From Dictyostelium discoideum (lineage: Eukaryota): DNA of 64,000 bases. Where the stretch lies: positions 1,696,001-1,760,000 of the forward strand of contig CM000152.2 of NCBI GenBank assembly GCA_000004695.1. Direction: 5' to 3'. The translations under genes and the position numbers were made by a program. Shown here piece by piece: positions 44,048-62,579 of the stretch (position 1 is the stretch's first letter; each line of letters opens with the position of its first letter). The notes beneath the pieces were generated by a model. The model did not search any database and was not told the DNA's origin. It was given only the letters and a program-made list of their open reading frames with translations.

Positions 44048-45378
44048 ATGAAAGTTTTATCTGCCTTATGCGTTTTATTAGTCAGTGTTGCCACTGCCAA
44101 ACAACAATTATCCGAAGTTGAATACAGAAATGCTTTCACCAATTGGATGATTGCTCACCAAAGACATTATTCATCAGAAGAGTTCAATGGTCGTTACAAT
44201 ATCTTCAAAGCCAATATGGATTACGTCAATGAATGGAATACCAAAGGTAGTGAAACCGTTTTAGGTTTAAATGTCTTTGCTGATATCAGCAATGAAGAAT
44301 ACAGAGCCACCTATTTAGGTACCCCATTCGATGCTTCATCCCTCGAAATGACCGAATCCGATAAAATCTTCGATGCTTCCGCTCAAGTCGATTGGAGAAC
44401 TCAAGGTGCTGTCACCCCAATCAAAAATCAAGGTCAATGTGGTGGTTGTTGGTCATTCTCAACTACTGGTGCCACTGAAGGTGCTCAATACCTTGCCAAC
44501 GGTAAAAAGAATTTAGTCTCATTATCCGAACAAAATTTAATCGATTGTTCAGGTTCATACGGTAACAACGGTTGTGAAGGTGGTTTAATGACCTTAGCTT
44601 TCGAATACATCATCAATAACAAAGGTATTGATACTGAAAGCAGCTACCCATACACTGCTGAAGACGGTAAAAAATGTAAATTCAACCCAAAGAATGTTGC
44701 TGCTCAATTATCATCATACGTTAACGTTACCTCTGGTTCAGAATCAGATTTAGCTGCCAAAGTTACTCAAGGTCCAACCTCAGTTGCCATTGATGCATCC
44801 AACCAATCATTCCAATTGTACGTTTCAGGTATCTACAATGAGCCAGCTTGCTCTTCAACTCAATTAGATCACGGTGTCTTAGCTGTTGGTTTCGGTACTG
44901 GTAGTGGTTCATCTGGTTCCCATGGTGGTTCCCAATCACAATCTGCTGGTTCAGATTCACAATCTGCTGGTTCAGAATCATCCCAATCTGAATCCGGTTC
45001 ACAATCACAATCTGAATCCGGTTCACAATCACAATCACAATCTGGTTCTCAATCATTCTCTGGTTCCTTATACTCTGGTTCATACTCTGGTTCCCAATCT
45101 GGTTCCCAATCTGGTAACAGCGGTGCTGCTGTTAAACAAACTGGTGCTGGTTCAGGTTCAGGTTCAGGTTCAGGTTCCGGTTCCGGTTCAGGTTCAGGTT
45201 CAGTCTCAGGTTCAGCTTCAGGTTCCGCCTCAGGTTCCGCCTCAGGTTCATCAAGTGGTAGCAATAGCAACGGTGGTGTTTATCCAACCGCTGGTGACTA
45301 CTGGATCGTTAAAAACTCATGGGGTACCTCATGGGGTATGGATGGTTACATTTTAATGACCAAAGGAAATAACAATCA
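44048..45378 (+). CDS. Papain-family cysteine proteinase (cathepsin L-like) with C-terminal Ser/Gly-rich insert, exon 1
   Basis: Signal peptide [17 protein letters not shown]. Propeptide ERFNIN-like ([21 protein letters not shown]). Active-site [11 protein letters not shown] and H ([10 protein letters not shown]), N...W (NSWGTSWG). A roughly 120-aa (GS/QS)n insert sits before the C-terminus. GTAAGT donor, phase 2. It resembles the Dictyostelium CP4/CP5-type proteinases (cprD/cprE class) that carry Ser-rich GlcNAc-1-P domains. Confidence 0.85.
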
Positions 45379-45480
45379 GTAAGTACATAATATATAAAAT
45401 AATTTATATACATATTTATAATAAAAATAGAAATACTAACTAATTTTTTTTTTTTTTTTTTTTTAAATTTTCCTTTATAG

Positions 45481-45532
45481 ATGCGGTATTGCAACAATGG
45501 CCTCACGTCCAACTGCTGTTGCATCACTTTAA
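45481..45532 (+). CDS. Cysteine proteinase, exon 2 (QCGIATMASRPTAVASL*)
   Basis: The acceptor CCTTTATAG ends at 45480. It encodes the canonical papain C-terminal CGIA..AS.P. Confidence 0.8.
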
Positions 45533-45813
45533 ATTAACGATACATATATATACATATTTATATAATTTTATAATTAATAAAAAATAATACGAAAACATAT
45601 AAAATTTATATGATAAATAAATAAAAAATATTTGTAATATATAAAAATTAATTTTCTTTTAATAAAGTTGTTTTAAGTTCTCTTTTGTAAAATTTGTCTT
45701 TTTAAAAAAATTTTTTTTTAAATAAACGCCAATATCTTTTTTTAAAAAATTATAAATAAATTATTTTATTATTATAATTTTTTTATTTTATTTTATTTTA
45801 TTTTATTTTTTTT

Positions 45814-47031
45814 TTAATTATCTTTAATCATTTTTAAAATTTTAAAAAATATTTTCATGTGTTTCTTATAAAGTATTAAAAAATAATTTAAACAAAACCA
45901 AATTGTTAAACGTGGAATTGTAATTGAAATATAATCATTTAAAAATGAAGGAAATATTGAAAGGAATAAAAGTGAAAAAGATTGAATAAAGAAAACTAAT
46001 GTCCAAGTTTCATAATAATATTTTTTAAAAAATAATTTTAATTTTGAATTATATTTTAAACTTGATAAATTAACTTGTTTTCCTTTGATAATTAATTTCT
46101 TTACAGTTAATGGAATTAATCTATGATCTAATTTTATATATCTTTTATTTTTGAAATCACTAAATTCAATGATTTCAACACCAAATGGAATTGAACCATA
46201 ACAAAGATTTGAAGCAATATATTCTCCATTGAAATGATCAATAATTTTCAATTTCTTAACAGATGATGGTATTACATTCTTTTCAATTCTTGTTTCAAAA
46301 CTACAAAATGAAATTGTTAATTTTCTAACTGATGATGGTATAAATCCTGGAATTAATTGCGGTTGAAAATATTTTGGACCCAATACAAGTTTTGTAACTG
46401 ATGATGGTATAAATCCAACTAATAAATTAATATTAAAACAACCATCGATAATTAAGGTTTTAATTGATTTTGGTATATCATTAATAGTTAAATCCATTCT
46501 ATTGAAAAAATTGAATAGTTTTAATTTGGTCACAGTTTGTGGAATTGTATGTGGTTTATTAAAAATACCACCATATTCAATGGATGTTACAGATGGTGGT
46601 AAAAATTCAAATGATTGATTGAAATGATATCCAAATCTTAAAGTTTCGCATGTTGGTGGAATTACACCTTTATCAATTTTAAAATTAAAAAATTGACCAA
46701 CATAAATTGTCTTTACTTTTGGTGGTAATGATCCAATTATCAATGGATATGAAAATACATTACTCAACTTTAATGACCTTACTGAATGTGGTATTGCTCC
46801 AACTGGTATCGATGAATTCTTTAAAAATTTACACTTCTTTATATAATATGAATTCTCTAAACCATTCAATTTGCTACAATCTTCAAAAACTTTAATTTTA
46901 TTCATTGAATATTTTTTAATTTGATGAAAAATTCTAAATCTTAAAAATTTATTTCTCCAAACTTTAAAAAATAATATTTCATTTAAATTATTATTATCAA
47001 TTATTAAATTAATTTTATTATTATTATTCAT
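45814..47031 (-). CDS. FNIP-repeat protein (Dictyostelium FNIP repeat family), 405 aa
   Basis: Tandem units of about 22 aa: IP.SV..L.FG..FNQ.., (V/F)IP.SV..L..G. The non-repetitive N-terminus is MNNNNKINLIIDNNNLNEILFFKVW. Confidence 0.7.
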   Translation of the reverse strand: MNNNNKINLIIDNNNLNEILFFKVWRNKFLRFRIFHQIKKYSMNKIKVFEDCSKLNGLENSYYIKKCKFLKNSSIPVGAIPHSVRSLKLSNVFSYPLIIGSLPPKVKTIYVGQFFNFKIDKGVIPPTCETLRFGYHFNQSFEFLPPSVTSIEYGGIFNKPHTIPQTVTKLKLFNFFNRMDLTINDIPKSIKTLIIDGCFNINLLVGFIPSSVTKLVLGPKYFQPQLIPGFIPSSVRKLTISFCSFETRIEKNVIPSSVKKLKIIDHFNGEYIASNLCYGSIPFGVEIIEFSDFKNKRYIKLDHRLIPLTVKKLIIKGKQVNLSSLKYNSKLKLFFKKYYYETWTLVFFIQSFSLLFLSIFPSFLNDYISITIPRLTIWFCLNYFLILYKKHMKIFFKILKMIKDN

Positions 47032-60330: not shown

Positions 60331-61139
60331 AATATTTTTTTAATTGTTTTTAATTTTAATTTATTGTTTTTTAAAAAAAAAAAAAAAGAGAAAAAAAAAA
60401 AAAAAATTATCACTAATACTTCCTTAAAAAATGTTATTCATCTTTTAAGGCACCCCATATTTTACTCATTAAAATACAAAAAAATATAACTAATTTTTGT
60501 TTTTTGAAGTCATATATATATTTACATTGTTCCAAGTTGTTAAGGTGTGGCTGAAATTATTTTTTTTTTTTTTTTTAATTCTCCCAAATTTCAATAATGA
60601 GCGATATACTTTCTGATTTACAATATCAATATTTAAATATTTTTTTTTAAAAGTAAAATAAAATAAAGTAATTTATTTATTTAATATTACTTTTAAAAAA
60701 AATAAAAAAAATTATTTAAATACTTATTCTTTTTTTTTTTGATTTTTTTGATTTTTTTTTTTTTTTAATATTGTTTGGAAAACTGAATAATAATTCTTTT
60801 TTGTGTTTGAGTAGGGAAGAAAAAAAATTCCTTTACTTTATAAAATATTCTTAAATTTAACAAGGCTAGGCCGCCACCTGCTTTAATTAATCCCTAATTA
60901 TTATTTCTCAAATTTTTAAGATAGTTTTTTTTTTCTTTTTTTTTTTTTTAACAAAATTTATTCTAACAAACCCTCAAACATTATAATATAATTTTTTAGT
61001 AAAAAAAATTCAACAATAAACTATTTTAAATCTATTTTTTTTTAACATATATTACAAATAATTTTTTATTTATTGTTTAGTAAACTTTAAAAATCTTTTT
61101 GGTATTTTTTATTTTTATAAAATTATATAAATTTTTAAT

Positions 61140-61200
61140 TTAATTCCATTTTGATTTTGGAATGGCTTGTGGGATTGAAGCCATAGTAGCAATACCACAT
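61140..61200 (-). CDS. Cysteine proteinase paralog 2, exon 2 (QCGIATMASIPQAIPKSKWN*)
   Basis: The acceptor CCTTTATAG has the same structure as paralog 1. The intron is 135 nt. Confidence 0.75.
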
Positions 61201-61335
61201 CTATAAAGGTGAAGTTAAAATAAAAATTAAAAAAAATTTAAATAAATGATTAGTTAGTAACTCTATCCTAATATATATATATATATATATATATATATAA
61301 ATTTTTTTTTTTTTTAATATATTATGTGTACTTAC

Positions 61336-62579
61336 TGATTATCCTTATCTTTACTCATTAAAATGTAACCATTAATACCCCAGTCAAGACCCCATGAGTT
61401 TTTAACGATCCAATAGTTACCATCAGTTGGGTAATCACCAGAGTTACTATTACCACCATTTGATGAACCTGAGAATGAACTTGAACCAGAGGCTGAACCT
61501 GAACCAGAGACGGAACCTGAACCTGAACCTGTACCAGCACCAGTGAAACTATTGGAACCTTGAGATTGAGATGATTGTGACCAACTGTTTGAATCTTGTG
61601 ATGATTGAGATTGAGATGATTGTGACCAACTGTTTGAATCTTGTGATTGTGATGATTCTGACCAATTGTTATTTGATGATTGTGATTGAGAACCAGCAGA
61701 TTGTGATTGAGAACCAGATGAACCACTACCGAAACCAACAGCTAAGACACCGTGATCCAATTGAGTTGAAGAGCAAGCTGGTTCATTGTAGATACCAGAT
61801 GAATAAAATTGGAATGATGGTTGAGATGCATCAATAGCAACTGAGGTTGGACCTTGAGTAACTTTGGCAGCTAAATCTGATTCTGAACCAGAGGTAACGT
61901 TAACGTATGATGATAATTCAGCACCAATGTTACTTGGGTTGTATTTACATTTTTCAGTGTTGGCAGTGAATGGGTAACTGCTTTCAGTATCAATACCTCC
62001 GTTATTGATGATGTATTCGAAAGCTAAGGTCATTAAACCACCTTCACAACCGTTGTTACCGTATGAACCTGAACAATCGATTAATTGTTGTTCAGAGACT
62101 GATGTTAAATCTGAATCACCATTGGCAATGTATTGAGCACCTTCAGTGGCACCAGTTGCTGAGAATGACCAACAACCACCACATTCACCTTGATTTTTGA
62201 TTGGGGTGACAGCACCTTTAGCTCTCCAATCGACGGAATTAGCTTGGACACCACCAAATACTTTTTCAGATGGAGTCATTTCGAGTGATGATGCATCGAA
62301 TGGGGTACCTAAATAGGTGGCTCTGTATTCTTCGTTGGTGATATCAGCGAAAACATTTAAACCTAAAACGGTTTCACTACCTTTGGTATTCCATTCATTG
62401 ATGTAATCCATATTGGCTTTGAAGATATTGAAACGACCATTGAACTCTTCTGATGAATAATGTCTTTGGTGAGCAATCATCCAATTGGTGAAAGCATTTC
62501 TGTATTGGAGTTCAGATAATTGTTGTTTAGCAGTGGCAACACTAACTAATAAAACACATAAAGCAGATAAAACTTTCAT
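61336..62579 (-). CDS. Papain-family cysteine proteinase with Ser-rich insert, paralog 2, exon 1
   Basis: The N-terminal 300 aa are nearly identical to the gene at 44048 ([23 protein letters not shown]...), with [11 protein letters not shown] and [10 protein letters not shown]. The insert is SQSQSSNNNWSESSQSQDSNSWSQ rather than (GSQS)n. GTAAGT donor. Confidence 0.85.

Follow-up and report, generated by a model that had tools for sequence, protein, structure and literature searches.

Introduction

CP7 (proteinase-1) and CP6 are cysteine proteinases of Dictyostelium discoideum which are encoded by the genes cprG and cprF, and the gene pair as such is already known. CP7 has a mass of 47 kDa (PMC4920372) and its gene carries the identifier DDB_G0279187 (PMC6406579, PMC4263456). 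It has been described as the principal proteinase of vegetative cells and is the reference substrate for Ser-O-phosphoglycosylation. In PMC4920372, which cites Ord et al. 1997, CP7 is named as the main AD7.5 antigen, i.e. the antigen carrying GlcNAc-1-phosphate (GlcNAc-1-P). The same paper places GlcNAc-1-P on the Ser-rich insert of CP7 with reference to Ord et al. 1997 and Mehta et al. 1996, and the latter is also cited in PMC6994554. Here we analyse the locus of both genes in a stretch of 64,000 nucleotides of D. discoideum (GenBank assembly GCA_000004695.1, contig CM000152.2, forward strand, positions 1,696,001 to 1,760,000; in the following the window, or AX4 in comparisons between strains). 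As far as can be judged from comparison of sequences, the two genes are very probably an ancient inverted duplicate whose copies have been kept alike by recurrent interlocus gene conversion within the transcribed unit.

Long-lived inverted gene pairs subject to conversion have been described in mammals (PMC2720389) and in the palindromes of sex chromosomes (PMC3723533). The pair in the window resembles these systems in three respects: the two copies of one species resemble each other more than they resemble their orthologues in other species, the exchanged tracts form a mosaic, and conversion is not accompanied by inversion of the spacer. It differs from them in its arms, which are only about 1.5 kb long and about 90% rather than over 99.9% identical, and in its spacer, which consists of 16 kb of essential genes. 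A further difference is that conversion has apparently almost ended in the D. discoideum complex. We found no report of a conversion history of cprG and cprF in the searchable literature, gene conversion itself being a standard phenomenon.

The proteinase genes and their region of homology

The initial annotation of the window had proposed an inverted pair of cathepsin-L-like paralogues, and this was borne out by the gene models and by the I29 and C1 domains of the products. The genes are convergent, with 15,607 bp between them in the gene models of the window:

44048..45532, + strand: gene A, probably cprG; exon 1 44048-45378, intron 45379-45480, exon 2 45481-45532; 460 aa, 47.2 kDa
61140..62579, - strand: gene B, cprF; exon 1 62579-61336, intron 61335-61201, exon 2 61200-61140; 434 aa

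Their common two-exon structure was likewise correctly recognised. In both genes a phase 2 intron interrupts the Gln codon (CA/A) directly 5' of the sequence for CGIATMAS, and the unspliced reading frames end at a TAA which overlaps the GTAAGT donor. The intron comprises 102 nt in gene A (GTAAGT...TATAG) and 135 nt in gene B. The G+C content of the genes is 39-42%, that of the whole window 24%.

The product of gene B is an exact match to cysteine proteinase 6 of D. discoideum AX4 (cprF; Q94503 / XP_641725.1). Gene A most likely represents cprG, because its predicted mass of 47.2 kDa fits the published 47 kDa of CP7 (PMC4920372), because the Ser-rich domain is present, because other assemblies have genes of 459-461 aa annotated at the same place, and because the identifier of cprG, DDB_G0279187 (PMC6406579, PMC4263456), is close to that of the FNIP gene adjoining gene A, DDB_G0279203. 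It is also the closest paralogue of CP6 and stands at the expected locus. The cprG-type proteins of AX4, of other strains and of D. citrinum, D. firmibasis and D. dimigraforme, as well as cprF of D. citrinum, were missing from the protein collection searched, although these genes were called on the contigs (without a recorded Pfam match). For this family a missing match in the hit lists therefore does not mean absence.

Both proteins contain an Inhibitor_I29 propeptide and a Peptidase_C1 domain according to Pfam (PF00112: 4.4e-75 for A and 1e-70 for B; PF08246: 1e-15 for A and 2.3e-16 for B). They start with the same 17 residues, a hydrophobic N-terminus and putative signal peptide. Reading the translations, we identified in both an ERFNIN-type propeptide motif, E45-x3-R49-x3-F53-x2-N56-x3-V/I60-x3-N64, within EEFNGR[YF]NIFKANMDY[VI]NEWN. 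The catalytic triad is C134/H275/N423 with the oxyanion residue Q128 in gene A, and C136/H276/N394 with Q130 in gene B; the triad and oxyanion-Gln columns were invariant in alignments of 31-32 sequences. Judged by these features, both are secreted or lysosomal cathepsin-L-like cysteine proteinases of papain family C1A, composed of a putative signal peptide, an I29 propeptide and a catalytic domain of the papain fold.

The closest solved structure is human procathepsin L (PDB 7w33; E = 1.9e-79). Human cathepsin L shares the I29 propeptide with ExxxRxxxFxxNxxx[IV]xxxN, the Cys/His/Asn triad and the Gln oxyanion residue, and both halves of it match; the match is broken exactly at the Ser-rich insert. 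Where mammals have a short loop that is cleaved to give heavy and light chains, A and B carry an insert of 100-133 residues. CP4 and CP5 of Dictyostelium (cprD/cprE), which are counted among the GlcNAc-1-P proteinases, belong to the same family, are about 70-72% identical in the conserved part and have a short Ser/Gly-rich stretch in the same loop. However, their inserts are much shorter (the proteins have 332-371 aa) and their genes lie at other loci.

The initial annotation had put the identity of signal peptide, propeptide and catalytic domain above 90%, which is too high. The signal peptides agree in 17/17 residues, but identity is 90% in the propeptide, 83% in the N-terminal part of the mature enzyme and 86% over the first 284 aa. 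At the DNA level the genes are 90.2% identical over 875 nt (44028-44902 versus 62601-61722) and 75% identical over 45173-45642 versus 61541-61047. Alignment of the loci together with their flanks, which had been recommended, gave clear boundaries. Homology extends from 20 nt before the start codon to about 110 nt past the stop codon, and the flanks beyond are unrelated:

44028..45642, + strand: extent of DNA homology at the cprG locus (-20 to about +110), the repeat or conversion unit
61047..62601, - strand: extent of DNA homology at the cprF locus, from blastn of A versus B

These limits refer to two-locus blastn at default scoring; lenient settings returned only AT-rich noise. In every species the homology between the F copy and the G copy ends at -6 to -87 on the 5' side and at 0 to +110 on the 3' side. 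The pair thus differs from large near-identical genomic palindromes, which have long arms including intergenic DNA and more than 99% identity. Its arms of about 1.5-1.6 kb comprise the transcription unit only and are 75-90% identical.

The pair is older than the species

We compared the regions around orthologues of the proteinases, the FNIP gene, RPL21 and the P5-ATPase gene. Six more independent assemblies turned out to have the same inverted pair at these two positions: D. firmibasis, D. citrinum, D. discoideum ACTFIT and ACTFIW, and D. cf. discoideum ACTFIY and ACTFIZ. The order in D. firmibasis is cprF-RPL21-CBF-PARP-FNIP-FNIP-cprG(inverted)-...-P5-ATPase, and D. citrinum has the same order. 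The question raised in the initial annotation, whether the intervening 16 kb are inverted in related species, can be answered in the negative, since the block has the same orientation in all species having both copies.

The flanks follow position. The upstream region of AX4 cprG aligns to that of the G copy in D. citrinum (523 nt, about 80%) and in D. firmibasis (170-211 nt, about 74.5%), and the upstream region of AX4 cprF aligns to that of the F copy in D. citrinum (403 nt, 75%). The 3' flanks are also orthologous by position in D. citrinum and D. firmibasis. No match was found in the alignments of F flanks with G flanks across species. As both the pair and its flanks are shared with D. citrinum and D. 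firmibasis, the duplication must be older than these species. Of the earlier interpretation, the inverted duplication therefore stands, while the young age and the rapid divergence of the linker do not: the pair is shared and the insert types are conserved.

Two more distant genes were considered. A cathepsin gene adjoining the P5-ATPase gene of D. purpureum (L011 17566-18733) was rejected as an orthologue because it is divergent, lacks the insert and has introns at other positions. A homologue from T. lacteum contains a Ser/Trp-rich insert but is not syntenic.

Evidence for gene conversion

While the flanks group by position, most of the coding region groups by species. In neighbour-joining trees of the signal-plus-pro and catalytic segments the F and G copies were joined with 98-100% bootstrap support in D. 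firmibasis and 94-100% in D. citrinum; for the short C-terminal segment the values were 59% and 100%, respectively. Within the D. discoideum complex F and G formed separate clades (90-100%). The same pattern appeared when parsimony-informative sites were counted in quartets of the two copies from two species, a site being concerted if both copies of one species share a state (order concerted : orthology : other):

AX4 and D. firmibasis, 90 : 16 : 7
AX4 and D. citrinum, 60 : 12 : 5
D. citrinum and D. firmibasis, 110 : 10 : 8
AX4 and ACTFIZ, 9 : 105 : 4

The orthology-type sites that survive occur in clusters, and nearly all of them are nonsynonymous. Only three residues outside the insert separate F from G in every species: Q130 versus E, and T427-S428 versus [LSV]-D. 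The Q/E position precedes Cys22 by three residues, and the WGxxWG motif contains the TS or [LSV]D pair. Differences between F and G are clustered as a mosaic, the longest identical runs being significant by permutation in 3/4 species (P = 0.0002-0.009). Differences are concentrated around the junction of pro and mature region (alignment columns 301-360) both in the D. discoideum complex and in D. citrinum, not in D. firmibasis.

Grouping of paralogues by species and a majority of concerted-type sites would also be expected if every species had duplicated its gene independently, without any gene conversion. Such parallel duplications are quite improbable. They would require the same inverted insertion with the same neighbours and boundaries in at least three lineages, and they are at odds with the orthology of both F and G flanks across species. 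Nor do they account for the paralogue-specific residues and the G-type insert motif (see below), which cross species boundaries, or for orthology-type sites that are clustered and almost all nonsynonymous.

The numbers of synonymous substitutions per synonymous site (Ks) point in the same direction as the trees. For the N-terminal 287 codons, Ks between the paralogues was 0.21 in AX4, 0.26 in ACTFIY, 0.20 in ACTFIZ, 0.09 in D. citrinum and 0.15 in D. firmibasis. Positional orthologues differed from AX4 by 0.29-0.36 (D. citrinum), 0.37-0.41 (D. firmibasis) and 0.13-0.15 (ACTFIZ), the overall range between species being 0.29-0.48. For the neighbouring genes Ks versus AX4 was 0.03-0.08 in ACTFIW, 0.10-0.18 in ACTFIY, 0.11-0.21 in ACTFIZ, 0.31-0.375 in D. 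citrinum and 0.375-0.68 in D. firmibasis; RPL21 was left out of this baseline because its codon bias lowers Ks.

These values bear on the reading closest to that of the initial annotation, an inverted duplication which occurred recently in the D. discoideum lineage, so that the identity of the copies would reflect their youth and the glycosylated linker would have diverged fast thereafter. At first sight the pair looks like this: the 5' 875 nt are 90.2% identical while the centres of the inserts cannot be aligned, and the numbers of insert repeats vary between strains. Yet the F-G Ks of 0.21 in AX4 is lower than the Ks of either gene compared with its orthologue in D. citrinum or D. firmibasis, although the pair is shared with these species. 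In both of them the two copies occupy the positions known from AX4, each with flanks orthologous to those of its own position, and six G copies from three species have the G-type insert motif in common. A recent duplication is very improbable, being contradicted by the synteny.

We also counted columns in which all four codons are synonymous. In these purely synonymous columns the ratio of concerted to orthology-type sites was 24:1 for AX4/D. firmibasis, 22:1 for AX4/D. citrinum and 34:0 for D. citrinum/D. firmibasis. This leaves very little room for the idea that purifying selection and codon bias alone have kept two old, independently evolving genes alike. The high G+C content of both genes relative to the window would suit it, and RPL21 demonstrates that strong codon bias can lower Ks. 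However, neither force can yield species-specific synonymous changes common to both paralogues, or push the Ks of paralogues below the orthologue Ks of the same genes. That one locus was assembled twice in inverted form can practically be dismissed: apart from the similarity itself and the runs of N elsewhere in the window nothing suggests it, DNA divergence is about 10%, inserts, intron lengths, C-termini and flanks differ (the flanks being unrelated rather than identical, as an artefact would have them), and the same pair is present in six other assemblies.

We infer that gene conversion is the process which homogenised the copies. The history very probably began with a single inverted duplication of a gene unit of roughly 1.5 kb, before the lineages of D. 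discoideum, D. citrinum, D. dimigraforme and D. firmibasis separated. Thereafter, repeated non-crossover interlocus conversion between the convergent copies, which are separated by about 16 kb, would have homogenised the transcribed region in each species. What remained unconverted would be the promoters, the 3' flanks, the repeats at the centre of the insert and a few residues close to the active site. In the D. discoideum complex the latest homogenisation probably took place when D. citrinum had already split off but the divergent ACTFIZ lineage had not yet separated, with near-independent evolution of the copies since then. In both proteins the loop joining the strands of the catalytic His and Asn is enlarged to a presumably disordered insert of 100-130 residues with 42-44% Ser.

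The ratio of nonsynonymous to synonymous substitutions (Ka/Ks) between the paralogues was 0.7-0.8 in the mature domain (N-terminal part, 44378-44908 versus 62249-61716) and about 0.14 in the pro region, compared with about 0.3 between orthologues. This pattern would fit selection that keeps a few paralogue-specific residues against homogenisation.

Several points weigh against this reading of the two genes. No conversion event was observed directly; the comparison includes four assemblies of the D. discoideum complex. With only three fixed F/G residues outside the insert, orthology of the coding body rests mainly on synteny, flanks and insert motifs, and the trees are neighbour-joining trees of short segments. 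The exact sequence of gene A had no match in the protein collection, and no named CP7 record matched. Finally, the Trp-containing insert repeats of the F type are not present in the F copy of D. firmibasis, which makes the insert of the F type the less stable of the two.

The inserts between the catalytic His and Asn residues

Each of the two proteins carries a Ser-rich insert at the position corresponding to the heavy/light-chain junction loop of human cathepsin L:

44897..45295, + strand: Ser-rich insert of cprG, aa 284-416, 133 aa, 42% Ser; between His275 and Asn423
61419..61727, - strand: Ser-rich insert of cprF, aa 285-387, 103 aa, 44% Ser; between the catalytic His and Asn

The insert of cprG is made of tandem repeats of 24 nt, 12 nt and 6 nt; in its centre the G-type motif stands between an array of repeats and a (GS)n stretch. 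That of cprF contains a perfect 45-nt repeat, present twice, which encodes SQDSNSWSQSSQSQS. In the AlphaFold model of CP6 the pro and catalytic parts are confident, while residues 289-384 have a pLDDT below 50, so the CP6 insert is predicted to be disordered; it is bordered by strands 276-287 and 386-393.

The two inserts had been thought to have diverged completely. This holds for their centres, which cannot be aligned, but their heads and tails do align, as part of the stretch with 75% DNA identity (45173-45642 versus 61541-61047). The centres follow the position of the gene. A core of the form SGNSG(S)GAAV[KR]QTG was found in 6/6 G copies, from three species, and in none of the F copies. 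Trp-containing SNSWS[EQ]SSQ repeats characterise the F type in the D. discoideum complex and in D. citrinum and recur in the D. dimigraforme copy. Repeat numbers differ between strains. On this comparison the centre of the insert is the part that has retained orthology, and not the fast-diverging part of a young duplicate.

That such inserts are of the kind carrying GlcNAc-1-P had been pointed out in the initial annotation, and a Ser-rich insert of this kind is indeed present in each gene. For the modification itself we rely on the literature on CP7: according to PMC4920372, the insert of CP7 is a substrate for Ser-O-phosphoglycosylation with GlcNAc-1-P. Our literature search on this modification found no data for CP6.

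Distribution of the phase 2 intron

The intron 5' of the CGIATMAS sequence is confined to the D. discoideum complex (coordinates 45379-45480 and 61201-61335 of the window, L012 11460-12845 and L006 6178-6288). All cprF copies of the complex have it, namely those of AX4, ACTFIT, ACTFIY and ACTFIZ. Among the cprG copies it occurs in AX4, ACTFIW and ACTFIY but not in ACTFIZ. Neither copy of D. citrinum or D. firmibasis contains it, nor does the D. dimigraforme copy, and the T. lacteum homologue lacks it and has an intron at another position. The introns of F and G are alike beyond the splice signals, and directly beside the intron there are exchange-type sites, at which AX4 cprG agrees with ACTFIZ cprF and AX4 cprF with ACTFIZ cprG.

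One explanation is that a spliceosomal intron was gained in cprF within the D. discoideum complex and later copied to the homologous site of cprG in D. discoideum proper, by a very short conversion tract or by reverse splicing, though not in the ACTFIZ lineage. A gain followed by transfer between the paralogues would need the fewest events. Alternatively, the intron could be ancestral and have been lost repeatedly by a reverse-transcriptase-mediated process. Because 3'-biased intron loss of this type is frequent in Dictyostelium (PMC4683709), we put forward gain plus transfer in its full form only tentatively, at slightly less than even chances. If it is true, the intron gain could be dated, would still be polymorphic and would have been followed by a transfer from one paralogue to the other.

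A BLAST search with the introns against all DNA collected gave only low-complexity poly-A/T matches, and neither a source sequence nor a mobile element was found. Similarity of the introns to their own untranslated and upstream regions was weak, with scores of 31-48 against shuffle means of 30-36. In ACTFIZ cprF the conserved C-terminus is in frame only if a second intron of 167 nt (GTATGT...ACAG) is removed after a micro-exon of 5 nt, ATGCG (L006 6289-6460). The public annotation of this gene instead joins it to the downstream thioredoxin gene to give a product of 501 aa.

Other genes and features of the locus

The genes which the initial annotation had placed between the pair were all recovered. 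Their identities are based on open reading frames of the window, tblastn and Pfam marks on the called genes of a near-identical locus (L005):

45814..47031, - strand: FNIP-repeat gene DDB_G0279203, the first of the intervening block
48004..50597, - strand: PARP gene, several exons
51299..55183, - strand: CBF/Noc1-type gene, several exons
55733..56215, - strand: ribosomal protein L21e gene (RPL21)
57577..60413, - strand: three tandem secreted thioredoxin-like genes (about 57577-58173, 58606-59268 and 59729-60413)

The number of thioredoxin-like genes varies, with three copies in AX4 and ACTFIT, two in ACTFIY, one in ACTFIZ and none in D. citrinum, D. firmibasis and D. dimigraforme. The array is a lineage-specific insertion which was subsequently amplified. 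A further FNIP-repeat gene (594 aa; L002 7295-9079), which D. discoideum and D. citrinum lack, separates PARP from the FNIP orthologue in D. firmibasis and is read from the opposite strand.

D. dimigraforme had a single proteinase copy in the loci examined (L003 19569-20912 on contig JBTAPM010000034.1, with its flanks, and L008). This copy combines an upstream flank and an insert of the F type with a downstream flank of the G type. RPL21 of this species has no copy upstream of it, the block includes a gene for a DDE transposase, and the P5-ATPase gene is found on another contig. The chimeric structure points to crossing-over of the inverted paralogues or to some more complex rearrangement.

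An exact 20-bp palindrome, TTTTACATTCCAATGTAAAA, occurs at 57144-57163 and at 63620-63639, about 0.9 kb upstream of the start codons of RPL21 and RPS19, respectively. It is kept in every species examined and is followed by a run of A, a pyrimidine-rich (TOP-like) stretch and an AAG/GT donor (blocks ~56960-57165 and ~63620-63830). The block is probably a promoter and 5' untranslated exon module shared by ribosomal protein genes. Neither the Rfam and tRNA scans of 43000-64000 nor a sensitive Rfam search of 56850-57250 gave a match, and RNAalifold detected no covariation in the conserved block upstream of RPL21.

The window contains three assembly gaps in the form of 100-nt runs of N, at 9907-10006, 18976-19075 and 40771-40870, none of which touches the proteinase pair. 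The last one falls within an open reading frame with GYDEDGYD repeats upstream of cprG.

Significance

The understanding of these enzymes in the field is unchanged by our analysis; what it affects is the way in which their genes are compared. Because cprG and cprF would have been homogenised by conversion, trees based on their sequences mislead on orthology, and cross-species comparison of the two genes is better based on flanks and synteny. The residues that resisted conversion and the core of the insert are candidates for functional differences between CP6 and CP7. The locus would thus be a small, well-bounded natural case of gene conversion between inverted genes, and possibly also of a recent intron gain.

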